Shown here: in pieces, positions 8,544-36,981 of the stretch
Layout: the number at the start of each line of letters is the position of its first letter
Numbering within the stretch: position 1 is the stretch's first letter
Assembly (NCBI GenBank): GCA_905178155.1
Contig: CAJINV010000002.1
Location: 6,056,476-6,120,475 of the forward strand
DNA length: 64,000 bases
From: Amoebophrya sp. A120
Taxonomy: Eukaryota; Protista; Dinoflagellata
Direction of reading: 5' to 3'
Notes under the pieces: model-generated
The model's database searches: none
What the model saw: only the letters and a program-made list of their open reading frames with translations
What the model was told of the DNA's origin: nothing
Position numbers and translations under genes: made by a program

Positions 8544-9129
8544 CTTGAAGAACGTACGTGTTTCTACAAATAGGCAAGCCACTGCTTCATATGTTGGTGT
8601 CCGGGGGGGAGAACAGGAGGACTGCACAGTACACGTCGCAAACAAAGAAGTTTAAAAAATACTCTACGCCCACTTGTGAAGAAACAGGGGCGAGATTGAT
8701 AATAAAGCGAGATCGAGAACAGGCCAGAACTTCGCTTCAGGTTTTGTTGCAGCCGCGACGAAAAAGGAATAGGGTGAGCCGGACTCAGGTTGCAAACACT
8801 GCATCGGTTCCACGTATTTAGATGCTGCATTCGTAAGTACTAGTTCCTTTACGTACTTAGACTATTACTCTGCCATCGGCAAAGCGTCGAACAACGTGGC
8901 TAGAGAATACGGAGCTCGCCCTGCGTCGGGGCTAACCCAATCCCAGCCCATCTCCATCTTTTGACAAATCGATGTCAGCCGCGCAACCTCACAACCCGAC
9001 CAAACATCTTGAGTAAGAACTTGCACGCCGCTGAATGCAGGAGAACGAACACCGACAGAAGGGAGGGCGCCACAACGATTCCAATGTCAGAGAAGAGAAA
9101 TCCAATTGCAGTTTCGGCCACCCATGCAT

Positions 9130-14826: not shown

Positions 14827-17800
14827 CTATGTTCCGCCGTAATTCCTTGCGACCTTACTGCTGCGAACATTTGCGCTGGAAAAACGCTGAGCCCCAGAAC
14901 TACTTCTGGCCTCCATCTCACCACCAAACGACGAGCTTCTCGCTCCATCGCTTTCAAGCGTAGCAGAACTACTCTCTGTCCCACCTACCAAAGATACTAT
15001 CCTGTTTCGCGGTAGTCCTCGCTGCTCATCGTCTGTTCGTCGCACAGCGGGCCCGCCACCCCCTTTTATTTGTGGTCTACGGTTATAATTTTCAAAACGT
15101 CTAAAACTGCTTTTCGCATCCAGAAATTCCACCACCGTATTGCGTGCCTCGTCATCTTCTACTTCGTTCACAGACGCCTGCCAAACCGTTCTCCCGCTTC
15201 CCTCGGCTGTGGTCCGTAATATCTTCTTTCCTTTATTAACGTTCCTCCCCTCCAGACTCCCCGGCTTTAATCTTCCAAACTGCTCAACATCCGACATTAC
15301 GCTGCTGCTACTGGAGCGCTGGTCCACCAACACAGCTCCGGTCTCGCTACCTTCGCTGAGACTGCTGGTTGAAGAACTTCCCTCGGTTTCGTCCTCCCCC
15401 TCCTCCTCACTGGAACTAGAAGATGTTTGGTCCGCACTTTCCTTCACCTTCACCAAGTTCGTGTTGCGCTGTCGCACCATGACGGCCGCCGTCGCTGCGC
15501 ACATGCTCAGAATCGTGAAAAAAATCGCCACGGGGATGCTGCGCGCCGTCTTCGAGCAGCGCACGCTGTCGTTGGGACCGGACAGCTTCCCGTCGTCGCA
15601 CGTGACGCGCAGGCTGACCGCCGCAAACCAGTTGTTCGGGTCCTCGGCCTCGCGCGGGTACAGACACCGCAGCGAGCACGAGTCCTCATGCCGCAGAATG
15701 CTGGTTTTTTGTTTCGAAGTGTAGTTGTAGCCGCACGTCCCCGCGTGCAGCGATTCCACGTCCGCGCCGGTCCTCCGCGACAGGAATTCCCCAATGTTGC
15801 AGTCGTTCGGGAGCCTGCACCGCAGCAAATTTTGACTCCCGTCGTACTCGGGGAGATACCCCACCTTGCAGACGCAGTGGAGCCGGTTGAAGGACTCAAA
15901 CGTGTAGTGGTTCGAGCCGTACACCGAACTCCGGATCTCGGCGTTTTCGGGACACGGGGTGCACTCGTAATAGTTAGTTGATGTTCCGCTGGCAGTACTT
16001 GAGGACCTTGTCACATAGCTGCGCGGAGAAAACGGAGAGGTGGACCTCATACGGGCTGTGTTCGATGCTGTTCCTGGTATGTTGTGCCTCTGCTGTTCGA
16101 GATGTTGAAGTGTTGCCAGCGTGTTTGCATCCGTGATCTGCTTTAAGTAATGGCTGGTGGAAGCCAAGCACCGGCAGCTTCTCTCGTCTTGCCCCTTCGT
16201 CGCCCGTATGGTTTACTTATCAAAGTGCACAACTCGATGTCGGTCCCCCGTCGTTGTTGCGAGGCGTGGTGCAATCGAAGCCGTAAAAACTTCAGCAGAA
16301 CAAGCACAAGTGTTGCCTCTCCATAAAAAATCAAATCCACACACAACGCTGCTGATTGGTCCACGAGGAAGCTGCCAACTTGCCAAGACCAAAAAGGAAA
16401 ATGAGTAAATTTTCGAAAATTAGCGATACTTTCGCGCTAAGAAATGACGGGAAAAAAATGAAAAAGCTCCCTCTCGCGTTTGAGCCCGGTATCCGCAGCT
16501 TGACCAGTTGCCAAGATCAAAAAGAAAATTTGGCGCATTTTGAAAAATTTGCGATACTTTCGCGCTGCAAAATGACACGAAAAAAACGAAAAAGCTGCTT
16601 TTCGCGTTTGTGGGCCGGTTCGTACGCTGACCTGTGGCAAAAATATTGGCCGGAATAAATGCAAGGCAGTGCTGAAGAGTGAGAGGAGGCAACACGATCT
16701 GAGGGTAGCGCAGCAATATTTGCTTCTGGTGCTGCAGTTGGACTACTTTCGCATCAAAAACTACACTATGTGGGGACCTCGACCTCCACAGGAGTTGTGC
16801 ACTCTCATATCGCAGCGCAGCATCGAAGAGGTAGGGCGCGGTCGTGACGTACGGAGGCATTTCCATAGTGTGGTACCGTAGAGGGCCGTTCTGTGCCGCC
16901 CACACGTTCAAGTTCAGCCAAGTCACGGTGTTGTTCGGACACGCATAACAGAGATTCGTGTCCTCCCCGGATGTAGGTGATGCCGTGGTAGTTACTGCTA
17001 TCCCTGTAGCAGCTCTGACGGCAGCAGGAGATGGCGAGTAAAACGTGTTTTTACACACGCACGATGTGAAATATGACGCTCTCAGGCGTTCTCACACTCT
17101 CAACTGTTAAATGCAATAATACTAATGGCAAAAGTAAAAACAAAGGGGAAGAAGATTGCGCCTTTTGCATATACAGGTTTGACGCAGATTCTAATGCTAT
17201 CCATCGCGTCGAGATGCACTTGTCATGCGAAGTAGCAGCTTGCGCTTGGTAATGTAGAAGTGACAACTTTGCATCTCATGTAACTGTAGTTGAGAATGTA
17301 AAGTTTAACAATCCCATATGAAACTCGTCAAGGGGTCAGACCAGGAACCGTACGCGCACGGGAGGCAGAGGTCGACGGAGGGGGTGGAGGAGCTGTTGGC
17401 TGTTGAATCGACGACGGACGAGGAAGTTGCAGTTGCAGGAGCACCAGATCCTGCTGTCATGTTCGTTGTGTTGATATCGTGCGGTAGAAGCAGGTCTTTC
17501 GCCGAGTAGGAATAGGGATAAGCAGAACTGTTTTTCCCGTTCGTCGCTAGTACCGCTGTAGTTCCAGTCGCTGTACCTGTTGTACCTCCTCCGACAAAAG
17601 TGTAGTCTTGCGGCAACTCCGCTAGAGAATTCACGTACTCGTGATATACCCCCCTCGCCAGATTTTCTTGGATTTGCCGCAGAAACGGGTTTGTCGTGCC
17701 CGGGACTTTGTTTGGTCCAGAAGCAACACCAGCAACAACGCTACTTTTCGCCCCGTTTAAACGCACGGTGAAAGTTGTTGCCGAAGTGGAGGTATTGTTG

Positions 17801-20800
17801 GAAGTTGCGTTATTTGATGCAGAAGAAGTTGAGTTGGTTATGGTTTCATTCGTTGTCACATTCAACGCTGCAATTTCTGCCTGCAGCAACTTCTGCACCA
17901 CAGAGGAGACCGAGCTATCCGCCCAGGTCCAGCCAAAAACGTCATCGTCACTGGCCGCGTCAACGGCTTCTGAGACAGCGTAAGCCTGTGAGCTGTTCGC
18001 GAGACTCTGCTCGGCGATTGTGGCGAGAAGTTGGACCAGCTTACTGCTGGCGTTGGAATTAATATTAACGCCAGACGTCGAGCTTGCGGATAGAGTAGTT
18101 GTACTAGGGATCACGCCTTGGCTACTGGGTGCGTTCTCCACGACCAACGAGCCCGTCGCATTGTAAAACCCCTCAGGACAGCGGCAAGCACTCTTGACGA
18201 CGTTTTTTGTCGCCGCTGCGATGTCTGCTGTTGTGTCAAGAGCAGATGCGCCGGGGTGTGATGTTAGAACCCTTTGTGTTATTGAAACTGTGCTCCCTGC
18301 TGTCGTGTCTGTTGTGGTTCCGGTCGTCATTCCACTGGCGAGCGCAACGAAAGGACTCGCTGCGGCAGCTTCGGAGGTTTTCGCGTCCGTTAAGTACTGC
18401 TGCCTGGCGTAGTCCTCGCAATTCCAATACCCATTTGCAAAGGCGCTGTCTGATCCGTCACGCAGTTGATGCTCTAGTACGTTAGATGAGGTGGAATCGG
18501 TTGCGTTCTGATTCGTCTTTATCTCCAAGTCTAGCAACCGCAGGGAGTCATTCTGCAGTTGAAAAAGCGTCTTCAACGGTTCGGTCCCACGAAGATAGGT
18601 CACCCCCACCCCGGCGCTTGTAGTTCCTGGATTCGTACCAGAGGTACTAGAAGTAGCTGGCACAACCGGGTCGTTGAGAGTTGTGTAAACGCAACCTGGC
18701 TGGACTAGCGGCACGACGAAGGGCAGGAGAACCAGTTCTGTTGCAGAAGTGGTTGCCCCTCCTGAGGTGGAATCTTCGGAAGCAGAAGCAGTCTGCGCTC
18801 CCGTGCTCGTCGGTAGCCGGACGCCGCCTGTGGTTTGATACACATAGTCGGCAAACGCCAACTCCTGCCCCGGCAGTCCGTACACGGGTTGGAGAATTTG
18901 CATCGAAGAATTTGTGCTATTGTTGCTCGAAGACGACGATGACCCCGTTGCACCACCTTCTTGCAACTGCTGTGAGCTATGAAAAAATTCAACGGTCCTC
19001 AGCATGACCCAGGAAAGCGCGAACCCGCACGGTCGGACCTGCCTGCCTTGTGTTGTCGATAGTTCATCGGCATCGTAGATTGCGGTCGCCTTCGTCAGGC
19101 CGCAGGGCCCGGCGTCGAAAGTGGCAAGCCTTGGAGCCGGGCTGGTTGTGGTTGTAGTTGTTTCATCGCCCGCTGAAGTCGTGCTGGTCTGATTCGACGA
19201 CGGAGTAGATTGCTGTTGGGCACTGGTCGTGGTGACGGCTGATTGAATACCACTACTAGCAGTACTACCACTGCCATCCGTGCCACTGGTTCCGTTCCAT
19301 GTCCAGACGACTACGCGTATGAAATGCGAAAGTATCCTATCGCACTCGTATAAATGCATTACAAATTTTCCCAGCATGAGAAATAAAATTTGTAATGCCG
19401 TTTTACCTTGAGAAAGATATTTGTAATGCATGACTGCAATACGAGTACGATACTTTTGCACAGGATAACGCGATCGGGATTACAGAAGCAACCACTGCTG
19501 GTCTTGTACAATGCGTGCGCCGGAAATGAGAGTACACAACTCCCCCTGCCCCTCCCCCTTCATTTGTGTTGCATGAACAGCAACACAAGCGCTGGCAAAG
19601 ATGCAGCTTTTGCATGACAAATTTCTACAAGATTGTAGTGCTGTTTTGGATCATTCCGGAATCTGTCATGAAAACAATGCTAACAGGCAAAGGGTGGATT
19701 TGGAATTTTGCATGACAAATGTTGAGGGGGAGGGGGTGGAGTTGTGCATTGTCATACCGGAGCCCAGATTCGAGGCCCGACGTTGTTGGGATGGACCGCG
19801 AGTGCAATCGGATCGGTTGTTGAGTTTAATATGCCTCGTTCAGCGATCATGTGACAATGACAAGAAGCAATCTTCAATCATGCGAATTACAATGTAAAAA
19901 AAGCACAAGCTTACAACCTGTGGCACCGAAAGGAAACTGAGCTTGGCGTTTGCATCAAAAAGCGTTTTGCACTAGATCAGGTCAGCTAACTTGTCTGAGT
20001 TTGATATTTGACCAGCCTCGGCACGCACACTAGTACTTACCGTCTCAGCAGATGCGCCATACAGGTCACATTTAGGAGAAGCTTTTTCTTGCAAATGAAT
20101 AGTATATCAACACTTCTAGTACCTTTTCCCAAACGTAGGACTTCTTTAAGATTGTCACTTCCGCACACAGGTCGTGGATACCAAACTGTGTGAAGTTCTG
20201 CACCCCGCTGCAGGGAAAGCAGCTGGGCAAGATCTTCTGGGCGACCGCTCCGGGCGGCGCTTTGCTAATAAAGGTGCCCGCCGTCCCCTCCGACGCAGTA
20301 GCTGCCTTCAGATAAAACGCCACGCCACTGAAGACGGCCGGCTGGTCGAGGACATCTCTGCCCAACTGGGGCGCCAGTACGGCATTCGCGTCGTCCTCGT
20401 AAATCAAGCTTGTTTCATAAAAACCGTGGCCATTCTCTCCCGAAAAATCCGGGAGACCGTCGCAAACACAGGAGTTGGTCGGCGGGTAGTAGAAATCCGG
20501 GCGGTTTTCGAACTTCGTCAAGTCGGTCCGCAAAACGCCGGGCTCCGGACTGAACCAGCGACTATCCGTCGTCACTGCCGCGTAGAACCCGGTATCGGTC
20601 AAGTTCAGAAACCCCAGTGCCAAATCATCCGCGGCTGAGGTTCTACCGCGGTCGTTCGGTGCTGGGTTCAAGGATGAAAGCACTTCTTCTCCGGATGAAG
20701 ATGCGGCGGTTGGCTCCATGACATCAACTACCGTGGCGCTGCGCACACCCCCAGGGGTTGCAGTACGTCTATTTTGCTGTCGCAAAGGATTCCGGTAGGG

Positions 20801-21928
20801 CAAAACCGTTTGTTCGGCGATACTGTTCTTCTCCCTGTCCGAGTCGGAAATGTAGATATGGAGTTCTCAGTCGTTACATTCTCAACTGTTACATGAATTT
20901 GTCGCGCAAAAGTACTTTAAGCCGGCAGATGATCGAGCTGCTTCGCATGACAAATTTCCGGAGGACTAGACAGCATCTAAATCTGCGCCAAACTTGTAAT
21001 GCAAAAGGCGCAATCTCCCTCCTTTCACTTTTGCCAGTCTTGCATTACAAATTCATGTAACAGTTGAGAACGTAACATTTGAGAACTCCATAGTAGACTC
21101 TCTGCGCTTTCAACGGAGGAAACCGGATTGTGCCCTGGAGAATTTCGAACATGACTTATCAGAGTGCACAACTACTTACTCTCCCTCCCCCCAACATTCG
21201 CGATGTAAAATCCCAGATCTTCCAGCTGTTGAGCTGTTGTGTCTAGTCTCTTGCCACTGTCTTTGCGTGACATCAAATTCCAGAAACCAGAACGATACTT
21301 ACTACAGTCGGCTCATAGCATCAACTTCTCATACGCGCGTTCTTCTACGTGTTGTGGCGATCTTTGTATTGCTCCTGCTCATGCCAACTACAAAAAAATG
21401 ATGGGGACGTGGGGGAGCTCTTGTGCACGACTCGCATATGGCTTCACCGTTGTACAGCACCTGGTCAAAGACGCTCGTGACTGCGCAAGACTGCGGCTCG
21501 GAGGAGGAAAAACTACCGGAGGCTCCTGCTGGGGTTGATGATGCGGTCTGGTTTATTGGAGTTGTTGTTGAATTTAGTGTGTCATTGGTGGAGGAGGAGG
21601 TCTGTTGAGCAGCCACGAAGAGTTTTGCTGCTCTTCTACCAAAAAAAGAGCTGCGCAAGGACAACTGTGAAGTAGAGGTGCGAGAATCATATGATCGCTC
21701 CAAAAGCCGCTGGTGCCCGTCCTCGTCACAGCATATGTGAAAGAGGACTATGACAATGCAGTCGATAACTTTCTTCATCCTCCACAACGGCAACGGACTG
21801 TTGGGGCGTCGGTAGTACATACGCTCAGCCGCCACTGTGTTACCGCCGTTCCTTCTTTTTACCCGCTTGATGCACGACTTGCAGACAGAAGCGACGCCTG
21901 TCACCGACGACTTAAACGGGAAGACCAT
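14827..21928 (-). CDS. Large Cys-rich type I membrane/surface protein (GCC2/GCC3- or ephrin-receptor-like CxxC/CxC repeats), 8 exons
   Basis: Repeated CxPC...SCxC..GY/FY motifs, S/T-rich linkers, C-terminal TM IPVAIFFTILSMCAATAAVMV. Seven junctions join in frame. Start uncertain (ATGs at 21928, 21820, 21778). Confidence 0.75.
16218..16809. mobile_element. Introner family C, enlarged by an internal tandem repeat; DRs diverged
   Basis: tatcaaagtgcacaactc / gagttgtgcactctcata. Removing 597 nt gives AALRTIRATKGQDERSCRC. Confidence 0.8.
16380..16644. repeat. Tandem repeat, 128-bp period, about 2 copies
   Basis: ttgccaagaYcaaaaag at 16380 and 16508, with shared gcgatactttcgcgct and gaaaaagct blocks. 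Confidence 0.85.
17072..17318. mobile_element. Introner family D, DR tgaaa
   Basis: Subterminal tctcaactgtta / taactgtagttgaga. Excision gives LTSFTSCVCKN. Confidence 0.85.
19318..19467. mobile_element. Introner family B (150 bp), DR acgcg
   Basis: Right end acgagtacgatacttttgcacaggata. Excision gives CFCNPDRVVVW. Confidence 0.9.
19525..19756. mobile_element. Introner family C, DR ccgga
   Basis: aatgagagtacacaactcc / ggagttgtgcattgtcata (left end AAT instead of TAT). Excision gives RIWAPAHALY. Confidence 0.88.
19830..20180. other. Intron readable either as a degenerate TAT..ATA+5 introner or as GT-AG (19835-20181)
   Basis: Both excisions (356 nt or 347 nt) keep the same frame. Confidence 0.6.
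20857..21092. mobile_element. Introner family D with ~45-bp TIR, DR gtaga
   Basis: tatggagttctcagtcgttacattctcaactgttacatgaattt and its near-perfect inverse. Excision gives AQRVYISDSD. Confidence 0.93.
21157..21438. mobile_element. Introner family C, DR tgact/tggct
   Basis: tatcagagtgcacaa / ttgtgcacgactcgcata. Excision gives YNGEAMFEIL. Confidence 0.8.
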
Positions 21929-23123
21929 CGCGCCTGTCAGAGCCAAAAGAAACGTATTCAAATCAACAACGATGCATATTTATGTCATACGCATGATTTC
22001 GATGTAGAAAAAAGACATACTGTTCTGAAGCAGTCGTTTCAGGAAGTAAAAATTATGAGACAAAAAAGAATCCTACACTTGTTCCGTCACCAGAAACTGA
22101 ATCCAAAACTTTCGAAACGCTATGTATGTATCCGTAAAGACAACTACTTCTAAAACTGCATGTGTGTGTTGTTGTCGTCGAGTGGGTGAAGCAAGATGAT
22201 GTGTTGAAAAGTGCATACAAGTGATGTGGTCTTCGTCTTGCACAGAGTCATAGATACATTATCGTTATCCTAAAATTCCAGCAGCATTGGCAGAACAACC
22301 AGACGCCGGTATCTAAAGAACATCATGGATCCGATTCTCTTTTCTATTCGATGACTGAGTGCGAGCATCAGATATCACAAGTAGCAAAATCACAATACAA
22401 AGTGGGGACACGATCAACAATAGATCGATCAAAGGGGAGCAAAACGTAAATCACAAGAACTTTCCACCAGAAACAAACGCACCATTTTCCGCTGAGCTTT
22501 TTACCTTATCATGAGTTGGGAGACAATGACAAGCTACGCCACAAAAAAAACACATCAGAGGGCACAAGAAACTTCTCTTTGCGACGAAAATACGAGCGAA
22601 GCAACTCCTGTACTGGTACAAACGACGAGGATCTTGTTTTGCTTGGGAAAGAAGTGGGTTGTGCACCCAAAAGAGCTTGATCTAGAAAAGAAGTAAAACC
22701 AGATCGACTTGGAGGTTGTGTTTTGGATTTTGCCGGGCGTCGTAGACTGGACAATACGCAATACGTTTACAACAGGAAGCCACGTCGACCATTTCGTGTC
22801 TTTCCCATAAGGAACGTCGACGCGGCCGGTCTGATTGTGTTCAATGTAAACACTTTCTTCTTTCCGATAAGGATAGAAATTCCCTGTCTGTTTCTGTACT
22901 AGGTACTCGCATTCTTCACGAGTCATCGACAAAGCCTATTGATTCTATGCCTGACATCGAAGAATCTCAAAATCCAAGATCACCCACAGCTCAGATGTGA
23001 GACAACAAAGACTTAACAAAAAACTTCCATAAGCGATGATTTTCTTTTCGTGCAATCACGATCATGATCCACCTCCACCCCCGATAGCTGTAGCCCTGCT
23101 GATTAATATCCGCTAGAACGGCT

Positions 23124-26100
23124 TTATGATAAATCCTGCTGCGCCTCCCGCTCTTCCTCCGGGTAGAAATACGCAAATGCCAAGAACAGCAGCGCCGCAC
23201 AGAACACGAGCTTGGCAGCGTCAGACAGGTTTTTCAAGTCCCCCTATCAAGTGTAAAAGTGTTTGGGTCTGGAAGAATGCAACCTGTCGCGCTAAATCTG
23301 AAGCATGCAAAAATCTGCGCTGCATGATTACCAGAAGTCGCCCAGTTTTGACCAAGTCGGGAGGGAGTTTCTCATGCAGGATAGGCATGAGAGAGATCGC
23401 GCAGAGTCTGTCATGCTAGGTCCTGCATTCCAGACCTCATGGGTCATGGAAAAGCTGCATGACAAGTCGCGCACTCTTCCAGACCCAGACATTTTTACAT
23501 TTGATACCCCCATCCGGGCCTCCATACCAGTGTCCGTAATGTACCATTTGTGATTCGCCATGGCAATGCGCGTTAGCCACGCGTACAACATCCCCGTGCT
23601 CTGCGCCTCCTGCCGCGCGTTCTGCGCGGCCTCACTGGCAACGTCGCGGTCCTGGCGGAAGTTCCCCGCAACGGGCAGGACTTGCGGGGACCCGGGGAGA
23701 TTTTCCATCAGAATCAGGTCGCCCGGCTGGAAATGGGCCGTGTCCTCCTGCTCGCTGTTGTAATGCTCGAAGGGATCTCTACCGATGTAGAAATCAAAAT
23801 CGGCCTCGTGGTTCTTCACACTAGAAGTACGAAAAGAAGAAGAAGAACTGCTTGCTGTGGAAACTACAGCTTCGTCTCTGCTCGTCTTCGTTTGCGGCTC
23901 AAGAACCTTTCCTGACGACTTCTGGTTGAGCGCCGGCGGGTCTCGTACTCCCACCTTTGCGGTGACTTTTCCCTCATCCTCGTTAATTTGATTCACCGCT
24001 TGCTTGACTGCAGCGACATCAAGGGACTCTTTCTTCGTAGCAGCTCGGCCAGCCCGAGCATTCTTGCTCTTGTTCTTCTTCTTCCTTTTTTCGGCTGCGG
24101 CGGCGAAGGGATTTCTGACAACAGCTTTCTGCTTCTTGGCTGGCTTACTGTTATGCTGTGCAAAACGTCTTGCAGCGCACACGTCTGAACAAGTTCTTGA
24201 CGATGGCAAAACAAATGACAGGATGAATTATTTCTTTGTTCACTTTCGATATCGAATAGTACAAATTTTGATTCATCGGAAAAGTCGCATAGCATTTTTT
24301 TGACGGTGCGATAGTACTTTTGCAACTCATACTTGTCGTACCCCCGGTCTTGTTCGGGAGCTCTGGCCGGCACCCTCGCGTCTTTATCTATATCATTTCC
24401 AAGTGGCGCATTGCAAATACTGTCTCGGTATTTATTGTCTTGCTCCGCCCGCTGTTTTTCCTTCTCAGACAGGGGCGCTGCGACCTGTTTACTGCCTTTG
24501 TCCTTGTTGTTCTGTCGCGCTGCTGGGGAGTTGTGTTTTGTTCCTTGCTGGCCGTTCTGTGGACTGCCTGCGCCGGATGCAGTTGTACTACTGGATCCAG
24601 CGGTACTGGATGTTTCCTTGTGATTCGTACGCCTTGTTGTACCCCTAGCCTTTCTTTGTTTCCGGTCATATGACGCGATTAGCTCATCCCGGTCAAAGAA
24701 ATCCAAAAACCAGGAAGCCAGCCAGCCATACTTCTTGAGGTTTTCCGCTCTCCTTTTCTCCCGGTCTTCCTTCACCCAGGTCCGGCGCTCTTCCTCCTTT
24801 TCCGCATGCAGCTCCTCGGCCATGCTCGCCATTGGACTGACGCGGAGACAGTACCGCGTGTACAGGCCGTCGTGGTAGTAGTACACCGGAGCGATTTCCG
24901 GACCAACGGTGGCATTTTTCTCCGCCACGCGCTCCAGGTATTCGTGAATCCGCATGCCATTCCGTTTCCGCACCCCTTCCCTCCGCATCATTTCGCTTCG
25001 TTTCTGCGAATTCCCTTCTTCGCGAAGTAGTTCCGGGCGGCTGTATAGGTCGAACGCGTTATGAAATGTGGGAGCAGACGCGGTAGCAGCCATAGTCGCC
25101 GCTCGCATAGGAGAACTCGTGTTGTCTACTTTCTCATCCTCTATGCTCTTCGTCAAAGTTTCCTCATCGGCCTCGAACACCAGAGGCTTCACGGGCATCA
25201 CCTGTTGGCAGTATCTCAGCACCTGCATCTGCAAAAAAATCCGCCGGTTGCTCGGCGGCGGAAATGCGTAGGGAGGTTTGATCAGGTGCGCTTGTTCTTG
25301 CGGACCGCCGTTGGTGGAGGTGGTGGACGATTCAGTACTAGTAGTACTTTTCATCTTCTTCCACATAGCCCATTCGCTTTCCGCAACCTCTTCGTCGGAT
25401 TCGTAATAGCCCCAGGTCCACTGCAGGCTGTACTCTTGGAGAATGTTCGGCCTGGTATACTGCGATCCGGTGATTTGCCCCGGGTGCGGGTACTGCAGGG
25501 TGGGGAACACCAGCGATTCGTAGTCTGCCCAGCGGAACTTTTGCTTCACGAAGTTTGCAAAGGCGTCGAAAAACTTCTGACTGATGACATCCATCTTCAA
25601 GTTTTTCCGTTTGAATGTCTTTTCCCGGCGGTCCGGCGCCGTCTTCCGGTGCCCGCGCAGCCGGCTTGTCATGTTTTTTTCGTCCAGCACCAAACTGGGC
25701 GGGCTGCGCACGTGGTACAGCTGAAGGAGGGAAGGCGGGATAGTACTAGTACCTTCATCGTTCTTCTTTTGCTCGTCAGCTGCTGCGCTCTTCTTTTGTG
25801 CCTTCTTGTTTTCATCCGGTTTTCCGGAGGGAGAGGGCGTTTCAGGTGGGAACAGCGCACTGTCGTCTTCCAGCAAGTAGGGGTCGCAATCCTGGTTGGT
25901 CGTCCGCATCTGCCACCGAGCTAGATCGTCGTGGTGCTTGCTGACATGATTAATTTCCTGTCGCTGCATCGCATTGGTCAACGCCATCAAATGCCGAAAT
26001 TTGTCGTTTATCATCCCGTTATCATGGACTTTTCCCTGGTAGAAGACGGTGCTTGCCGGGATGGCCTCCGCCGTCCAGTTCGCGCGCTGCAGGTTTTTAC

Positions 26101-29100
26101 TCAGCAACACGTGGTCCGTAGTGGAATCTTCATCATCTTGTTCTTCCGGTCGAACATAGTTGTTGTAAGCTGGTTGCTCCTGCTCCTCTTCATCATCGTA
26201 CTCATCTGGCTCGCGCGTGAACACGTTCCGCAGGCGCCTCGCCTCCATTCGGGAGATGTTTCGGGCAACGTCCCGGGCAATCTTTTTCACGCGGGCCAGC
26301 TCGGTGGCCGGCAGTCCGGTCATGTCGATCAGTTCCGCTGTAGTATACGCTTCCATCTTCGTGGCCAGGTCGTCCCCAATGTTCCGCACATACGTCAGAT
26401 TTGACATTCGCAGTTGCGCCGCGATGAAGTATCAAATGTAAAAATGTCTGGGTCTGGAAGAATACAAACTTGTGATGCGCATTTCAAGACACAGAAAAAT
26501 CTCTCATGCATAGTTAGCAAAAGCTGCCCAGTTTCTGCCACCATAATGGGGGATTTGTCATGCGGATTCGGCATTGCGAAAGTTTCTCGAAGCCTGTGAT
26601 GCTAGAGCTCCCATGCCAGACCTTCTGTGTCATGCAAAAACAGCATGACTCTTCCAGATTCAGACATTTTTGCATTTCATATGAAGTTCTTCCGGGCGAT
26701 TTCCTGTGCGGTCACGTTGTATTCCGGGTACTGAATGGTTCCATTGACTTTCTTATCCTGTGCAAAAGTATCGCACTCGTACTAATTGCAGATATGCATG
26801 ACAAATCCAACTTTCTACCTGAAATAGCATGACAAATTGCATTTTTGTTCTTGGGAAAATTTGTAATGCAGTTTATACTTGTACGATAGTTTTGCAATGC
26901 ATATTTCTTTAAGCCCCGGGATGAAAGCGATTGCGATAACTCAATGTCGTCAGCGACGATAAGTTCATCTTCGCGAGTAGTTTCGTTGTGGAACAAATTA
27001 GTTGTCGCCACATTCATTTTCTGCGACACGGCGATATCAAGTTGATGACCCGTCTCGTTGTTGTTCAAAGCAGGACTAGAAGTTGCACTCACGTGCTTTT
27101 TCTGCTGGGACCACATATTCAGCAGGGAAGGTCTTGCGCTTTCGACCGCCTCTCGCACCGCAGCCTTTCTGTTTCGCGAAGTGTTATTGGCAATGTTTGA
27201 CAGCGCCAAAATCCATTCTGTGGTGCTAAGAGGCTGGGCGTCTTTCGGAGTTCCATCGGCTTCCGAGTATCGCCCCCAGCGATCCTCTATGGATTGCAAA
27301 AATGTCTGGGTCTGGAAGATTGCGAGATTTGTCATGCTTGCCTGGCATGACAAAAAAGTTTGCGATGCGTGTTCGAGAAGAGACCCTCTTGCCTGTCATG
27401 CAAAAACGCAGTTTCTCATGCGAACACAGCAACACAAAATAGCGCAGATATTTGTATTTCTTATGCTTGGCTGTGCATTACAGAGCAGTCACTATTCCCA
27501 ACATAGCATTACAAGTTTCCAGACCCAGACACTTTTACATTTCATATCCTCATCCTGCTCGTCCTCATCGAGCTTACCGGAAAGGTCCAGCAGAGAGGAG
27601 TATGCTCGCACCAGACTGCTGTCCAGTCCTTTCATTAAATTTTCCTCTTCCCCCGGCATGCTTCTCGGCAGAAACAAAAACTGCTCGGGCATGTGCCTGC
27701 GCATCTCCTCACTGCTTTCCCAGAAGTCAAAGGGCAGCCCCAGAACGGTCGAAGCTTCCTGGCGCCACAGCATGTACTGGGTGTGATTCACGTGCACGCC
27801 CTTGATGGTGAAAGGCGGGGTGCGAATCCAGGTGCTTGACCTTTTATTTCTCACCGTGGTCGAGGGAGTTGTTCGGGGGCCAGATGAATTTGTGATCTTG
27901 TTCCTTGCGGCTGACGACGTAATTTCATTTACAGGAGCTGCGGTTCGTCCGCTTGAAGCTGGAACCACGAGGGGTCCTCGGGACATCACGGTCGGACCGT
28001 CAGCAGCTCCATCCGCTACTTCATCCACGGGTACTGGCAGTTGCGGCTGCAGCTCAGCATTACCCTCCTGGTCCTTCGTTTGGTTCATCTTTGGTACTAG
28101 TGCGTCGTGCGCGCCAGGACGAACATCATGATCTTCAGCACTGTGGCCACCGGATGAAAACTGTTGAGCATTTTCCTGAGGTGTCGTCGTGGCCGCGCCC
28201 GGAGACATAGCAGCGCGAATGTGTGCCCTGAGTTCCTCGGTATACGAGGTATCGTTCAATGAAGGAGCAGGAAGTGACGTTCGCAAGAATGCGCCCCCTT
28301 CGACTACATTCGGTTGAGATAAATGCTCGTCGCTGTTGTTCTCCGGTACAGCTACTGCCGGCGCTGGCAACAGTCGCGGATCATGTTGATCCTTTACAAC
28401 TTCCCCGCTCTTGTCAAAAATCTTCGTGTTCCGCAGAATTTCGCCCCCACCGTCGCTCGTCCCGGAGGTTCTTTTCGTCCTAGTTGTAGTCCCCGATGTA
28501 GTTGAAAGTGATTTGTTCTTCACCGGATAAATGGGCACAATTTTCACACCGTACAAGTTCCGCCCATATTTCTTCACGGCGAGCGGCGTGTGGTAGTAGA
28601 TCAGCACCTGGGACAGCAAGAATTGGTGCTTCCGCTGCAATTCCTTCTCTTGCAGCTCGCGCGTGACCAACTTCGTGTTGTTCAGAAGATTGAGCGCGAT
28701 GCGTTTCTCGATTTGCCTTTTGTTCTTATCAAATGCAAAAGTGTCTGGGTCTGGAAGTAAGAGTCATGCTGTTTTTGCATGACACAGAAGGTCTGGGATG
28801 GAAGCTCTAGCATCACAGGTTTCGAGAAGCGTTCGTAATGCCGAATCCGCATGACAAATCCCTGACTTTGGTGACAGAAAGTGGGCAACTTTTGCTGCCT
28901 ATGCATGGGAGATTTTTCTGTGTTCTGAAATGCGCATCACAAGTTTGTATTCTTCCAGACCCAGACATTTTTGCACTTGATAGTTCTGCTTTTTCTGCAA
29001 GTCGAGCTCGAAGTAAATCATGTTTTTCCCTTGCTGCTTTTCCAGTGCGGAGGCTTTTTTGTGTCTCTGGTTCTTCACGGTCAGTTTCGGGAAATCCTTG

Positions 29101-32100
29101 ACCTGAAAGTCGTTAAGCGGCACCAAAACGTACTTGTCGAGCGTTTTTCCCTTGTGCTCAATCATCGTGCGAATCACCTGCGTATCCTCATGCGTTTCGT
29201 GGAAGGCGGGAAAGAGAATCTCCACGTCCAGGGTGGTGTTGCGGAGGAACTCCGCGTTCGGTTTCAATAATTTGTTTTTGTTTCTACTAGTAGAAGTACC
29301 CGCATGTTGACGCTTTTTGTTGTTGCCGCTCAACACCTGGTCGCTCTTGTGCCTGCCAGAGCTCGTCGGTGAAGCTGAAGCACCATCCAGATGGTCCATC
29401 CCAGGAAGCGTGGACGTGCCGTTACTCCACGTTTGGTTTCTGTACGCCTATCCAGGAAGAAACACCCATCAACATCCGATTTGTCATGCGAAACACGTAT
29501 CAACTCATGTGTTTGTCATGCAAAAAATGGATGTGGATGGGTTTTTTTCTGCGGATAACTCCACAAACACACCGATGACCGACTCAATCACCGTGCCTTG
29601 CAGGAGAACAACTTCCCTATTCAGCCGGTCCACGATCTCCAGGTCAAGTGCGGGCGTCGTTTTGTTCGTGTAGGGGACCGGAAACGCGGCCTCCATTTCC
29701 CGGGTGGAAGGGTCATTTTTGTATATTATGACCTGCTTAACAAGCGACGTTACAATCTCAAAACGTTACGAATAGAGTTTGAAAATCTGTGATGCAAGAA
29801 GTGCACGATCTAGTCAAGGCACACAGGACTGCGCATGAGAAGCTCCGAAGTTGTCCCGCACCGCTCTGCAATCTGCCGAAATTTGTGTTGAAGAAAGTGG
29901 AATGGTCTGCGAGTCTGTCATGCTCATTATGCAAGACAAATCCCAGATTCTATTGCAACGTGTGAGATTGTAACGTTTGAGCAGGTCATATATACGTCTC
30001 GTTCCTTCTTCTGTTCCTGCTTGGACCGAAACTTCCGCAGCTTGCCCCCAATGTTTGCAGATGGAGTTGTTGTCCCGCCCGGCGATGATTTTTTTGACTG
30101 GTGTCGCTGCTCCCTTTTTTGCTGAATAAGTTCGTGACGACCTTGCTCTCCTTCTTCACTAGTGCCACCAGTCGTAGAAGTAGAAACAGCACTTCTACCA
30201 GAAGATGCATCCGCTTGACCCGCTTGTTCCTGTGCTGTTGCACGTAATAGAGTTGCGCGACCAACACCTGGTGCTCCAGCACCTCCAGCGAAAACATTTT
30301 TTCCTACTTGGTTCAGGTTCGAGAAAAAGTTGAAATTGCCGTTCGTAACGTACTATCAAATGTAAAAATGTCTGGGTCTGGAAACTTGTGATGCTGGGTG
30401 GCGTCTCATGATGAGGCCACACATCCACATGCTGGCTCAGCATGACAAGTTTCTGAGCTTCTAGGTGTTGCCTATTCTGCATGACAAACTGCGTTTCTGC
30501 ATCACAGAAAAGTGGAGCCCTTGGGTAACGTGCATGACAGATTTAAGAGTCATGCCAGACAAGCATGACAAACATGAATTCTTCCAGACCCAGACACTTT
30601 TACAGTTGATACGTACAGCAGCTTCCGCATCACGGGCACGCGGTCCAGTTTCGGACGGTAGCCCAGCTGGATGTGCGCGTTGAGGTGGGAGACTTGCTTC
30701 TTGTCGAACGACGTCTGCCGGAGGTCGCCGTTAAGGTAAAATTCGATACCGTTTTGGGCCATAACTGCTTCTGCTGAATGAGGTGTTTGCTGTTCTTCTG
30801 GTGAAGTAGATGCACCAGTATTTTTCTTTCCCACCTCCGCGCCGGGTGGACCTCCACTTTTGGTCGCTTTATTTCCACCTGGTTCTTGTGGTTGTTGAAC
30901 TGGTAGTACAACTTCATGCTCCTTCACATCGGAGAGGTGGTTCTTTGCTGACGTGGGGGTAGGACTCGTGGTAATGGTCGGACTTGTTCTTGTTTCTGGC
31001 GAGTTACTATGTTCGCCAGCCCCGCGAGCGGAAGTCGTTACTGTAGTGACGTTTTGGTCTTTGTCCTGCAGATGATCATGCTCCTTTTTGTTTTCCGCCG
31101 TGTCCTCCTGAGGCTTGGGAGCAGCTGCTGGCATCACTTCATTTTCTACCAGAGTGATGTTGGGTTGTTGCGTGCTATCGGAAAAATCACCAAAGCTTTC
31201 CTCTTGTTGAACAGCTTGAGGAGCTAATCCGACCTCGGAATCAGTCGCAGCGGACGCTGGAGTAGATGAAGTAGAAGTACTCGTCGACGTGGCACTACCT
31301 CCAACATTCTCCTGCATAATCCTGCCTTCCTTCCCCGCTGGATCCTTGCCACTCGACGCCATAGAAGTACTGGCACCAAGCGGCAGAATCGAGGTGGTTG
31401 TGGTTGTTGTCTTGAAGTTAGAGTGGAGAGGCGGCTCGGAATCTATGTCAGCTCCGGCGTCAAGGGAAGGACGAGCCTCTACTTTGTGGTCGTCTCCTGT
31501 TCTTCCCCGTCTCTCGGCTTGTTTGTCTGGCTGAATATTATTTCCCCCGGGTGCAACCTGTGCACGGCCACCCGTGCGAGCGTCTGTCTCTAGTACCTCA
31601 TCAGGATCGACACGTTTTATTTCTTTTTCAGGACTAGGATGATCGGTTGTCAGATTATAGCTGATAAACAGCTGCCGGGAAAATTTCTTCTCCGGTAAAA
31701 ACAAGTCTTGATTGACTTCTCTGTCAAACGACAAACCGCGACGGCGAGGACCATTTCGAAGGCGTTTAATAGCTCCTCCAGCTGTAAGAACCTCTCTACT
31801 AGTACTACCTCCGGCCGAAGTTCTAGTCTTGGTGATCATCGACGTCCTGTGATTTTTGCTTACGTCACCACCGTGGTCCTCGTCGTGGCTCGCCCCTCCT
31901 CTGTTTTGATATTCATCAAGCGCCGCCGATGGAAGATGAAGAAGAGGCTCTACGAGTACTTCCTGGTGGTCCGCTAGACTTTGATGATCTTCTTCGTGAG
32001 AATTTTCAACTACATCCGGCACGAGTTCCCGCGCCTCGAGTATTCTCATATTTCGGCTCAAGGTTTCGAAGCAGGCGTTTTCCCGGGTTATTTTCTGGTA

Positions 32101-33513
32101 GTACTTCTGCTCTTCGGGCGTCATCTCGGTGATCTTTGACTTCAAGTGCCGTGCCCACGTCACCTGCAGCGTGTCGTTCAGCCGGTACTCAAAGGTGCGC
32201 CAACTCCACTGAAAATTGTATTCCAGCAAAATTCCGTTCTGCATCACTTGCGACCCAACGATCTTGTTCGCATACGGGAACTGCACTTTTGGGAACAGCA
32301 GCTGCGTCTTGTCCACCCAGGCCCCGCCGGAGTCCGCGAGCTGCTCGGAAAACGCGTTGAAGAACAAATCGTCCACGTAGTCTTGCGGTTCGTCACTCTC
32401 CCAGGTGAAAGAACCATCCTCCGCGACGGTGCTTTTCAAGTCCAAGGGTGGGAAGGCGTTTCGGGAGTGCGACGGGTGGTCCGGGGGGTAGCTCCGCGTG
32501 ATGTTAAACACGCTCCCTTTCTTGTCCGTCACCATGTATCGCCGCGACTCGAGGAGGGGAAATGTGCGTCGTGCTGTGTTTATTTTCGTGTTCTTGTGCC
32601 GCATAGTATCTGCTGCTTCGCCAACATCGAGATGATCCTCTTGCGTGTCGAATGACTCAAACTCATAATCCTCGCCGTGGTCCGTGTGGCTCCTGCTATG
32701 ATCCAACATCTGCAAGTTGCGACGTCCTGTCTTGGATGCTGACTTCATGGGGCTCATGGTTGGAACCAGTCCCGGCCGGCCAAACAGAAATTTTCGGTCC
32801 TCGTTGTACACGCTGAAAAACCCCAAGTCGTCGAAGTCCGGGCCGGAATGCAGCCACCCAAAGGTGGACAGAGACAGAATGACGGACACAACCGCCAGGC
32901 CAATGAAAAATTGCATAATCTTCCGGTACCTCTTGCAAAACTCGTTCAGAAGCAGCCGTTTCTGGGCTGCCGGATTTTTATAGTGCTGCCCGCCAAGAGT
33001 AGAGCCGTGGCTCGAATTATTATGATCACACGAAAAGGTGTAAATCCACCCGAAGAAAAAGTTCCAATAGCCTCGCCAAACCCGCATTCGGCGCTCCCGC
33101 TCTTGCTGCTTCTGTCCTGCGAGAATGAGTTTTAGCGTCTGCGCGGACTTCAACGACCGAGCTTGCTGCGAAGTTGTGTGGTTCTGCTGATCGTCTTGGT
33201 GCTCGGATTCGAACGGTCCTCCAGTCGTAGTTCCAGATGAATTTGTGTGGCTGCCCCTCGAAGAGCCCGGGGCCCATCCCGATCCATTATCTTGATTACT
33301 GGAGCTGCCCGACGAGGTGTGGTGCGGGTTCTGTGCCTGTGGCGCTGCGTTCTTGGATGATGTCGAAACCCCCTTAGACGTCGAGGAGCCCCCTCCATGT
33401 CCGCCAGCTCTGCCTGCGGACGAAGCGCCTGGTGGCGCCTTGCTTTTTTTCTTGGCCGGTTTTGCAGCCTTGGACGCAGAGCGACCAGGGAGAATCCACG
33501 AAAACGCAAACAT
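23124..33513 (-). CDS. Very large hypothetical membrane protein (~2780 aa, 10 exons)
   Basis: Removing nine introners (+5 nt each, 2035 nt total) from ATG 33513 to TAA 23124 leaves 8355 nt, a multiple of 3, and each junction joins in frame. TM-like segments FFIGLAVVSVILSLSTFGW and LVFCAALLFLAFAYFY. Confidence 0.8.
23245..23506. mobile_element. Introner family E, DR ccccc
   Basis: tatcaagtgtaaaagtgtttgggtctggaag / cttccagacccagacatttttacatttgata. Excision gives ARMGDLKNL. Confidence 0.93.
24152..24331. mobile_element. Introner family B (older copy), DR actgt/cttgt
   Basis: tatgctgtgcaaaa / ttttgcaactcata. Removing 185 nt links the two ORF frames (GYDKKPAKK). Confidence 0.75.
26430..26681. 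mobile_element. Introner family E, DR tgaag
   Basis: 31-bp TIR. Excision gives ARKNFIAAQL. Confidence 0.93.
26754..26903. mobile_element. Introner family B (150 bp), DR tttct, orientation opposite to the 19318 and 36483 copies
   Basis: Left end tatcctgtgcaaaagtatcgcactcgta. Excision gives GLKKVNGT. Confidence 0.9.
27288..27546. mobile_element. Introner family E, DR tcctc
   Basis: aaaaatgtctgggtctggaa TIR core. Excision gives EQDEDRWGR. Confidence 0.92.
28727..28982. mobile_element. Introner family E, DR gttct; inverted near-copy of 26430-26681
   Basis: Its reverse complement aligns along the full length of 26430-26681. Excision gives KKQNKRQIE. Confidence 0.93.
29449..29557. mobile_element. 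Introner family F (109 bp), DR acgcc/actcc
   Basis: tatccaggaagaaacacccatc / gatgggtttttttctgcggata. Excision gives VFVEYRNQ. Confidence 0.85.
29727..29990. mobile_element. Introner, D-like, DR tatat/tatac
   Basis: tatgacctgctt..cgttacaatctca / tgagattgtaacg..agcaggtcata. Excision gives ERDVYKND. Confidence 0.88.
30354..30611. mobile_element. Introner family E, DR cgtac
   Basis: tatcaaatgtaaaaatgtctgggtctggaa / ttccagacccagacacttttacagttgata. Excision gives KLLYVTNGNF. Confidence 0.93.
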
Positions 33514-35011
33514 TATACCAGCAACCCAGTTATTTTTACTAGGCTTCGAGACGAACTTTCGAAGTTGGAAAACCAAGTAGGCAAAACAACTTCTTCTCTC
33601 CCGTATAGGTAGATATTACCGATCCGAAAAGATGCTTGTAAGAGGCGACTTTGAACAGAATCAAAATCTAGTGGTCTATTAACGCCTTACTTGTAACACA
33701 TTCACTTTCACATACCTTCCCAGACGACGCAAAACGCAACGAGCAATGCGGAATGGCTGTGAGTATGATCTGCTCGTCCACTTTTTTGAAGGATAAAAAA
33801 CAACAACCAGCAATGTACAGATCGGTGCATCGGTCTAGATTTCTACACAAACAAACAACAAAACGAAGACAAAAAAAAAGCACAGAGATCATGGGTACGA
33901 GCCAACAAAAATGATCGTTTATTACGACCATTGAGTCAAGAATAGATACAAAGCTGCAAATTGCAAATCAGCACAAAAAATTGATCTAGAGTCGGATCTT
34001 TTGGAGTGGCCAGAGCAGTAGCCTGCGAGAGCAGCCACACTATTCCACTGCATCGAGGAAGAGTGATGTGGGCACTGCGTGCATCGCATATGTTGATCTT
34101 TAAAAAAAAATTTTGCTTCATCTTGTTTCTGCTTCCGTTCTTCCACGACACACGGTCTGCTGACCGCCGTCTGCAACTAGATGCACCTTTGTGATGGCGC
34201 GTCAGTAGAGATACTAGCCTTCACATGACTTCGTGATCACAGCCGTCTTATCCGGGTTTTTCTGCGTTTGCGTTGTCAGTCCCGGTATCAATCTGTCCGG
34301 GTCAAAATTCAAAAAGTGATGATTCAAGATAGAAGCGGCACTGGTGACCTGTATCGTGCCATAGAAGGAGAAGTTTAGAACGGTTGCTACTATGATTCGC
34401 TTCATTCTGAAGTTCTTGCTCTTGGTTGTCGAGCGCGACACGACAAGCAAGATTCTTCTAACTACTTACCTCATCAGGTGTTTTAAAGAAGAACGCGAAC
34501 AAATTACAATATTGGCAAAATCTGCCCGAAAGACTAGGTCGTACGGTGGTGCTGTGCCACTGCGTCCCGTTCCCCACGGCGTGGAAGTGGATGTGCTCGA
34601 GCTAGAAACACCGGTCCCTTATTTTCAATAAGTATGACACTGAGAAGAGAGCATCGTCCACATGTTTAATTACACGAAGTAGATGAGATGGGATACTAGG
34701 CGCCGAGGCATCGTATCATGCTCACAGTAATCAACATTCCGTGATTATTTAGCCTGCAGATGGAAGAAGTAAACGGAATCCGGCCACATACGAGCAGCTG
34801 CAGTACGCATCTAGCAATTAGATGATGACGATGATGATGTTACCCAGTAAAGGGTTGACAAGAGGAACAGTGCAGGTGAGCTCCTACTACTGTCCGAGAA
34901 TCACGTTTAGGTGTCGTGAGAGAAGTAAAAAAATTCTTCAAAAAGTTGTTATATATTTACACAGTAAACTCCTAAGTAGACGAATATCCAAGATACTAAC
35001 TACCCTCGCCC

Positions 35012-36981
35012 TCACTTCCGATACATCGTTGCCTGTCCCAAGGCACTGAGCACCAACTCCGTTCCCAGCCGCACGGTCGGCGACACGTGCTTGCCGATCA
35101 GGACGTCCAGGTCCCCGTGCATTTTCAGTTTCTTGGAGTAGTCCGACAGGGTGTCGATGACCGGATTGATTTCGACCAAGTCCATGGACACGAGGCGCCG
35201 GGTCAGTGCCAGCTCCTCGCAAATGTAGTGGGCCTCCCGATACGTGAGCCCCCCGCGCGCACAGGTCCCGGTGCCGGGCGCGATGCTCGGGTCGCACCCA
35301 TCAATGTCGAAGGACAAATGAATAGGCCGGCGGGCGTTCGGGTCGATGCGCCGCAGCGCTTCCTTGATCACGTTCGCGATGCCCAACTCGTCCACGTCCC
35401 GCATCGTATGCATTGCAAAAGTGATTTTTATCGCGCTCGTAGTAATGGCTGTCATGTTGCACCACAAATTTGTCTCAAGGCAAAGTTCGCCTTCGTCGAA
35501 GTCGCATTTTTAATGCTGAGCTAATTTGTTTTTGGTACCACCAGTATTAATCGGAAGATTATACTTTTGCGATTCATACATCGTGAAGAAGTGCAGATCG
35601 GAATTGCGCATCAACTCCGCCTCCCCGGGGTCGATGTCGCGCAGGCCGATGAAGCAGAAGTTGTGCGCATTGACCACGGGCTTGCAGTTCTCCGGCATCC
35701 AGGTTTCGAACCCTTTTGGGTGGGAGTCGAACCAGCCCATGACGTGCGCCGCTGGCATTCCGTGGTAGTGCCCGGAGGGGGAGGTCTTGGGTGTGTTGCA
35801 GTCCCCGTGCGCGTCCACCCAAATGACACAGAGGTCGGGGTAGATCTGCTGCATAGCGGTAATTGTGGATACCGCGACAGCGTGATCGCCTCCGACCGTA
35901 AGTTGAAAGGGCCGAGGGATTTTCAGCTTGCTGGTAAGTGCTGTTGCATGTGGACCGGGAATATTTGAGATTTGCTGCTCCCCCGCCTGCTGCTGGAACA
36001 GTGACGCCGTTGGCATTGGTGCCGCTCCTACCGTGCCCCCGTTCCCGCTATTCATGTTATCTGCGCTCATCATGCTAGTCGTGGTTTTCCTGTGAATCCG
36101 GAGGATTTCCTGGTACAGGTGCTCGCAAGCCGGCCCGATTAAATCCAGGTTCTTGATGGGTTTTTCTACCCCATTGCTTCCTGCGGGAGACGGATTCCGG
36201 TGACCACAACTCGCTGCGAGGACGGTGGGGTGATTCTGATTCGCTGCGCCGGTGGGTGTCACGCCCGGGTTGGTCGAAATTGGGCTCTGCATCGTGGATT
36301 TTGTCGTGGTCGGTGTGATGTCCTCTGCCTCCGAGGCGGTCCCGCTGGAGGTGTGGGCCGCGTCGAGCAGCCCTTGTTCCAGCAACCAATCGCCAAAGGA
36401 AATTTTCGCTCGGATCCCGGGGGTGTTGCGCCACGTGTCGAAGTTCTCGCGGGTGATCGTGTTTTTCTTCTGAAAGAGTTCGTATGAACCGCAAAAGTGT
36501 AGTATCGCACTCGTATAAATGCATTACCTCAGCATGAGAAATAAAACTTGTAATGCAGATTTGCCTTGGGAACAAGATTTGTAATGCAAGGCCTGCATTT
36601 ATACGAGTACGATACTTTTGCACACGATAGTTCGTCCTCCTCCGCCATTTTCTGCGCGAGTGCGATCGTGTTTTGCTCACTAGCACTTGTGCCTGCCGCA
36701 AGCCCCTTTTCCCGAAACAAGGCGTCGAAGTCCACATCGCCGTAGTCTTTCCACGTGTACCCCAGCTTTTTCACGAGACTGGCGAGGTGGGCCGCCCGCA
36801 CGGCCTGGGGCGCCACCTCGAGGCCGCGGAGGTTCTGCCCGATGCTCATGCCCGCCCCGAGAAAGGCCACGGAATCGATGGGGAAGATCACCTTCTTCGA
36901 GTCCGCCCGGTGTCCCACGGTGGTCTCGTAGCCCGCCGTAGCGGACGGCAGCTGAGACTTGGGCGTGGCGCCGGACGACAT
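35012..36981 (-). CDS. ARG1: Arginase (ureohydrolase family), 3 exons
   Basis: Motifs GGDHAVA, WVDAHGDCNTPKTSPSGHYHGMP and HLSFDIDGCDPSIAPGTGT..RGGLTYRE. Long low-complexity insert before GGDH. Confidence 0.95.
35407..35578. mobile_element. Introner family B, DR catcg
   Basis: tatgcattgcaaaagt / acttttgcgattcata. Excision restores arginase FFTMRDVDELG. Confidence 0.9.
36483..36629. mobile_element. Introner family B (147 bp), DR gttcg
   Basis: Similar along its length to 19318-19467. Excision gives EEDELFQKK. Confidence 0.92.

Follow-up and report, generated by a model that had tools for sequence, protein, structure and literature searches.

The DNA analysed here (the window) is a 64-kb stretch of a contig of the marine parasite Amoebophrya sp. 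A120. Its central part encodes, on the minus strand, a large gene (23124-33615; the host gene) with a first in-frame ATG at 33513. It reads as a 2818-codon frame after nine elements of mixed orientation, flanked by short repeats, have been taken out with 5 nt each. The focal elements of this study are two of them, 26430-26681 and 28727-28982. Both carry stops in all three frames, and the host frame is closed again if either is kept in. No Pfam match was found for the host protein, scanned in three pieces, and no Rfam match anywhere in the window. Excision of an element plus 5 nt fuses minus-strand frames into long ones in other parts of the window as well. An M3 peptidase frame of the window is 100% identical to a database protein named from Amoebophrya sp. 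A120, and a gene of the arginase family (Pfam PF00491), also on the minus strand, carries the element at 36483. A host strand could be called for 17 of 18 window elements, all of them lying in minus-strand frames; the codon model had been trained on the same window and the check is circular. This arrangement is in line with the co-oriented gene blocks of A120. Two tandem 110-nt copies (79% identity, 128 nt apart) are found at 16373-16610.

The elements are listed below with the joints that skip them in contigs of runs X3-X6. These four low-depth runs were guessed to be RNA and counted as one sample; none is on record as RNA. A joint is given by the two window positions that it brings together, and the direct repeat by its matching positions out of five. 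The introns at 53512, 54159 and 55095 come from mapping the database protein P0001.

23124-33615, minus strand: host gene, with the nine elements that follow
23245-23506: family C, oriented as 26430; skipped (267 nt) in an X3 contig
24152-24331: element with decayed direct repeat (3 of 5); intron 24148-24332, minus strand, GT..AG; joint 24147/24333 in X4, X5 and X6
26430-26681: family C, first focal copy; direct repeats 26425-26429 and 26682-26686; predicted intron 26426-26682, minus strand
26754-26903: family B, opposite to 19318 and 36483; joint 26748/26904 (155 nt) in X4, X5 and X6
27288-27546: family C, opposite to 30354; its removal is needed by the host frame; no junction seen
28727-28982: family C, second focal copy, opposite to the first; direct repeats 28722-28726 and 28983-28987; predicted intron 28723-28983, minus strand
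29449-29557: short element, direct repeat 4 of 5; joint 29443/29558 in X4 and X5, with no canonical reading
29727-29990: lies within the host frame; its direct repeat matches at 4 of 5 positions; no joint found
30354-30611: family C, opposite to 23245 and 27288; joint 30347/30611 (263 nt) in X4
5615-5935: family A, in minus-strand frame 3857-8651
6222-6542: family A, in the same minus-strand frame 3857-8651
19318-19467: family B, near the 5′ end of minus-strand frame 16420-19559; no junction seen
35407-35578: related element, opposite to 36483 (weak, 39 vs 17); skipped (177 nt) in X3 record 13, the same contig as for 36483
36483-36629: family B, in the arginase-family gene, minus strand; skipped (152 nt) in X3 record 13
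53512-53702, minus strand: M3 peptidase gene, intron from a decayed element whose 5′ repeat opens with TAG; direct repeat 1 of 5
54159-54356, minus strand: M3 peptidase gene, intron formed by the element 54164-54356; the cut lies 0-3 nt ahead of TAT
55095-55316, minus strand: M3 peptidase gene, intron from a decayed element with a direct repeat of 2 of 5; the cut lies between 1 nt inside TAT and 3 nt ahead of it

A window scan for inverted-repeat elements of the form TAT...ATA returned 22 candidates, compared to 0-8 in ten shuffled sequences; 20 were kept and two long, weak ones (22260-22875 and 34714-35578) were dropped. Both focal copies start with TAT, finish with ATA and have inverted ends of ~32 nt. 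The terminal motif met in the window elements is TAT followed, after ~7 nt, by three or more A. Each focal copy is bordered on both sides by an exact 5-bp direct repeat whose sequence differs between the two copies, and such a 5-bp repeat flanks every young copy. Five copies of the focal family (family C) are present in the window. The elements are likely insertions of MITE-type transposons. Duplication of a TA dinucleotide, as in Tc1/mariner-like or ciliate-like elements, was considered first and was set aside given the 5-bp repeat. Separately, a decayed TAT...ATA element (repeat 1 of 5) was noted at 11921-12143; its removal with 1 nt on the 5′ side and 4 nt on the 3′ side leaves a stop-free frame.

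The original prediction described the focal copies as near-identical and inserted in opposite orientation in one gene. Opposite orientation and the common minus-strand frame were confirmed, but “near-identical” overstates their likeness: pairwise alignment of 26430-26681 with the reverse complement of 28727-28982 gives 228 identical columns out of 256 (89%). After trimming of the ends, the opposite orientation has a local score of 254 and the same one a score of 20, the shuffle maximum being 26. Family B also occurs both ways round, as had been proposed. The copy at 26754 is opposite to the one at 19318 (score 64 opposite vs 31 same; 19 of 19 bridging copies opposite) and to the one at 36483, for which all 14 bridging copies are opposite while the direct pair score is weakly contrary (32 same vs 21 opposite). 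The same claim for family A was not confirmed for the copies at 5615 and 6222: over the whole element they are 0.65 identical in opposite and 0.59 in same orientation, the internal scores tie (43 vs 44) and the bridging copies read 7 same and 1 opposite. A further opposite-orientation pair (82 vs 18) lies at 17072-17318 and 20857-21092; this family has an A-run that is weak or absent at one end, and no junction was seen for it.

All nine element junctions seen in the probable-RNA contigs remove exactly the element plus 5 nt. In the region 23600-31200 the contigs of X3-X6 skip six of eight elements (24152, 26430, 26754, 28727, 29449 and 30354), and X3 skips those at 23245, 35407 and 36483 too, the latter two within one contig. 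The first focal copy is bridged by the joint 26423/26681 (257 nt, i.e., 252+5) and the second by 28721/28983 (261 nt, 256+5), each in one X6 contig at a depth of ~3, with 62-63 letters on the short side and an ambiguity of 5-7 nt. Family C is thus removed both ways round (23245 and 26430 vs 28727 and 30354) and so is family B (26754 vs 36483). The claim that one element acts as an intron in either orientation is therefore backed, for the focal copies, by one contig each from a probable-RNA run. No junction was found in the four low-depth runs for 27288 and 29727, which is evidence neither way. TAT and ATA, the ends named in the original prediction, are not where the cuts fall, as element plus 5 nt leaves.

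Several other observations were made on these runs. A joint 27322/27394 in one X6 contig, with only 20 letters on one side, skips 71 nt inside the element at 27288; it probably derives from another copy. The 28727-28982 element has loose ends: contigs of X3-X5 join family C ends to identical foreign flanks, so that certain family copies at other loci appear to be retained in transcripts. The raw-read RNA runs X9 and X10 matched only repeat ends and one 40-nt spot and are uninformative on the host gene. Hundreds of X9 reads match a stretch of ~40 nt at 34826-34866 at ~95% with unrelated flanks; it is either a repeat or a sequence common to another organism.

For each of the nine junctions every equivalent cut on the transcribed strand was enumerated. 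A canonical reading (GT/GC/GA..AG or AT..AC) exists for one only, 24152, which reads GT..AG; none was found at the eight others, both focal ones included. Removal is not explained by cryptic canonical dinucleotides; use of cryptic signals on both strands, which the original prediction had named as refuting it, thus fails as a refutation at the level of dinucleotides. The position of the cut is hidden by perfect 5-bp repeats and becomes visible where the repeat has decayed. At 24152 it is unambiguous, falling 1 nt ahead of TAT and 4 nt beyond ATA (position 1/4). At 29449 it is confined to 0-2 nt before TAT, while the introns mapped with P0001 allow -1 to 3 (55095), 0 to 3 (54159) and 1 or 2 nt (53512) before TA. 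No database protein spanning the host gene or an element at 58373 was found in the search made, and those introns consequently add nothing to the cut position. Position 1/4 is the sole one compatible with all 12 mapped introns (nine junctions and three P0001 introns), but it is pinned by the single junction 24152, itself GT-AG, and 2/3 suits the other four of the five informative introns. All five decayed introns (24152, 29449, 53512, 54159 and 55095) offer a GT 1 or 2 nt ahead of TA, and the cut may shift to a GT where one exists, a post hoc reading; 30 imperfect metagenome copies (see below) show no such GT excess. We infer the rule N↓TAT[C/G]...[C/G]ATA NNNN↓ (arrows, cuts), which places T at intron position +2 as in GT introns. 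According to Table S4 of PMC7789003, in the part of that work available, T is found at +2 in all nine predominant A120 splice-site types, a pattern that placement by the aligner may bias. Exact removal with only 1 or 2 of the 5 repeat bases matching implies that the repeat is not needed, and TAT is not strictly required, the repeat of the 53512-53702 intron beginning with TAG. The intron 24148-24332, in which a decayed repeat yields GT-AG at 1/4, is possibly a snapshot of a non-canonical intron becoming canonical.

A larger sample was drawn from 149 metagenome loci (motif scan of 16 of 64 parts; full flanks in 80; loci overlap). Each focal copy has 89 to 110 long blastn matches in these overlapping loci, the best at ~90% identity; the window genes have no long match there. 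The loci hold 284 distinct elements (2-7 in shuffled loci) with a median length of ~260 nt. For 167 of 181 scorable copies the frame is best when the element is removed with 5 nt, and the direct repeat is exactly 5 nt in 231 of the 284 elements, 4 nt in one and 6 nt in none, by a finder that favours 5-nt repeats. The conserved ends are TAT[C/G] and [C/G]ATA; A occupies positions 11-13 in more than 90% of 568 ends, whereas TAT itself is required by the finder. The mismatch positions of decayed repeats (15, 9, 5, 9 and 6) carry no position information.

Host strand was assigned to 168 of these elements by a codon model trained on the window. The original prediction called for a genome-wide count of orientation relative to the host gene; it was made in these loci, where elements of clear family and orientation divide 49:30 for family C (p 0.04), 9:10 for family B and 6:2 for family A. 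Close kin of the focal pair divide 2:5. Both orientations occur on one host strand in 9 of 14 locus-family groups with at least two copies. A GT/GC/GA..AG reading is possible, in any register, for 16 of 138 copies with perfect repeats. AG at first looked overrepresented at the acceptor (16, with 5 on the opposite strand), but nothing of this remained once the background was matched for codon phase: 12.7 are expected for the 16 seen at the inferred acceptor (p 0.2). G at intron +1 (48 of 138) was likewise discarded as a signal, since its mirroring on the other strand (45) marks it as a target preference.

When folded, the transcribed strand of each focal copy forms a long terminal stem (z -4.7 and -7.3), as must follow from inverted ends. 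Among the metagenome copies no selection on RNA stem pairing was detected: G.U and A.C pairs are balanced (63:77 over 14 nt, 150:170 over 30 nt, also 113:141), the sense strand folds better in 89 of 168 elements (p 0.51), and repeat decay does not differ between the 5′ and 3′ sides (30 and 47 ends, low power). The proposal that only the symmetric features are needed for excision is thus upheld in one part, neither the interior nor the orientation deciding removal, and finds no support in two others: no pairing bias speaks for a need of the stem, and the TAG intron speaks against a strict need of TAT.

These data support the conclusion that the interior and the orientation of the element do not decide its removal; the cut is likely set by mirror-image ends instead of normal splice signals. 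Insertion by a putative transposase would create the 5-bp duplication. Whichever way round the element lies, its 5′ end in the transcript would then read N-TAT[C/G]...A-run and its 3′ end T-run...[C/G]ATA-NNNN, and a terminal stem might hold the two together. With cuts 1 nt ahead of the repeat and 4 nt behind it, exactly one duplication copy would be taken out: as 1 + 4 = 5, this copy would leave with the element and the original coding sequence would be restored whatever the target. The first A of ATA, which would stand at -7, is a candidate branch point. The original prediction had set the strand specificity of donor, branch and acceptor signals against a need for symmetric features only. 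Strand-specific signals do not exclude the spliceosome, since inverted ends of 30 nt present the same 5′ and 3′ sequence both ways. The lopsided cut suggests a machine that reads direction. A120 keeps the U2, U4, U5 and U6 snRNAs and 83 of 89 spliceosomal proteins, and U1 snRNA was not found (PMC7789003, accessible text). Our preferred reading, which we consider probable, is that these likely MITE elements, which likely RNA contigs lack together with 5 nt whichever way the element lies, are removed by a modified spliceosome that reads an end motif shown both ways.

The strongest competitor is a system separate from the spliceosome, with a structure-guided nuclease and a ligase whose cut site would lie a constant number of nucleotides away from the terminal hairpin. 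A mechanism of this type has been proposed for the nonconventional introns of Euglena, and it is the idea of the original prediction in its strong form. We regard it as possible, though less probable than a modified spliceosome. The eight junctions of nine that lack canonical sites, the missing AG excess at the inferred acceptor and the strong terminal stems in both orientations would all suit such an enzyme, as would the U1 snRNA not found in A120 (PMC7789003, text as available) and, in Euglena itself, the requirement of splicing for a self-complementary motif with fixed spacers of 3 nt and 5-6 nt (PMC12501133, in the portion at hand). Yet the transcribed strand shows neither a wobble bias nor a folding advantage. 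Continuity with normal splicing is moreover suggested by T at +2 and by the GT-AG element 24152 being cut at the same position, and the repeat layout is common to 15% of the canonical introns of A120 (available part of PMC7789003).

Excision from DNA, in a somatic or stage-specific copy and in the manner of ciliate internal eliminated sequences, is very unlikely. Runs X3-X6 are not on record as RNA and a rare joined DNA form would be compatible with the X1 joints listed; against this, the published introns of A120 were called from RNA-seq (PMC7789003, as far as its available text goes). Furthermore, in the DNA-like run X1, contigs at single-copy depth span the elements 24152 and 35407 without a break and extend into both focal copies, and loss of the element along with one repeat, in a lopsided manner, agrees with RNA splicing.

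Template-switch artefacts are classically met where a stable hairpin lies between two 5-nt repeats. The junctions could accordingly be jumps of reverse transcriptase across the hairpin between short direct repeats, with nothing removed in the cell; the elements have this very setting, the focal junctions are ambiguous by 5-7 nt, and family copies at other loci are apparently retained in X3-X6 contigs (the loose ends). This is extremely unlikely, as the host gene has no open frame unless the elements are removed, the focal copies stopping all three frames, and removal is exact in spite of decayed repeats (24152, without ambiguity; 29449; the P0001 introns with 1 and 2 of 5). A relaxed ordinary spliceosome that, in the manner of Polarella introners, finds cryptic GT/GC/GA-AG sites in the duplication or at the ends of the element whichever its orientation could point to 24152 (GT..AG), to the GT available in all five decayed cases and to either-orientation introners with such sites (10.1101/2020.10.14.339549, available text), but is also extremely improbable, no equivalent cut at either focal junction yielding such a pair and only 16 of 138 perfect-repeat copies being able to, at any position.

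The elements described here are already known: they are the published introner elements (IEs) of Amoebophrya sp. A120 (Farhat et al. 2021, PMC7789003). They come from the same organism (100% protein match) and share with the IEs the repeat with TAT and an A-run, a direct repeat at both focal copies, non-canonical ends and a repeated family. In its available text, PMC7789003 gives IE repeats starting with TAT followed ~7 nt later by three or more A, and border direct repeats of 3-5 nt (5 bp in Fig. S19); it leaves open how the majority of A120 introns, which are non-canonical, are removed, and describes the border position as variable or unknown (legends of Fig. 3 and S23). The present results differ in that a single cut position, 1 nt beyond the repeat on one side and 4 nt beyond it on the other, accommodates all 12 mapped introns. 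Neither splicing of A120 elements in both orientations nor a single cut rule is stated in the literature searched or in the accessible text of PMC7789003 and its supplement; figures 3, S19 and S23 may show the position, and the text on four upstream nucleotides points toward such a cut. Inverted ends and an integrase-like homology have been ascribed to A120 elements (PMC12130899), and a published method has allowed for opposite-orientation copies (PMC9860276), both as seen in the available parts of these papers.

The literature thus already covers the elements, the organism and the notion that introners can lie either way round. In Polarella glacialis the introner classes 2, 3, 6, 7, 8 and 10 occur in either orientation with GT/GC/GA donors, and Aureococcus (Huff et al. 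2016) is cited there for the same behaviour (10.1101/2020.10.14.339549, from the part available). As in Polarella, a transposon with its target duplication becomes an intron either way with a bias to one side (family C 49:30, p 0.04). In Polarella introners the duplication or the element end supplies the GT/GC/GA donor and the AG acceptor, whereas eight of nine junctions cannot do so here, and no excess of AG was found at the target site. The canonical sites typical of Polarella and Aureococcus introners are available at only one of nine junctions and in 16 of 138 copies. The DNA transposons IS3EU/GingerRoot share TA..TA termini with the A120 elements, which is a lead only; they usually make 6-bp duplications (PMC10045372, available text), while here 231 of 284 repeats are of 5 bp and none is of 6 nt, with the finder's preference for 5.

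The nonconventional introns of Euglena resemble the A120 elements in their MITE-like inverted ends, the lack of GT-AG, a self-complementary motif and unequal fixed distances (PMC12501133 and PMC11282704, in the parts available). Their motif is CDG/CHG at 3 nt and 5-6 nt, demonstrated by knock-in, and the excised RNA is circular (same sources, same parts). In A120, a lineage unrelated to Euglena, the sequence-based motif is TAT/ATA at a predicted 1 nt and 4 nt, and the pattern N3CDG...CHG N5-6 is not the one found. A tentative generalisation, which could well prove right, is that one ruler, N↓TAT[C/G]...[C/G]ATA NNNN↓, matched to the 5-bp duplication, may serve the tens of thousands of introners of A120 and turn an insertion at any coding site and in either orientation into a seamless intron with neither GT nor AG and without selection of the target site; the machine might be a spliceosome that lacks U1 and uses the ATA adenosine as its branch point, or else a novel system guided by the hairpin and parallel to that of Euglena. 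What is added here to these known systems is independence of orientation without canonical sites and one cut position for all 12 mapped introns. Opposite-orientation copies in one transcript provide a natural control, by which the interior is dispensable and the signal confined to the inverted ends. A single cut rule in turn predicts a branch position and spacer lengths, and would let A120-type genes be annotated from DNA alone.
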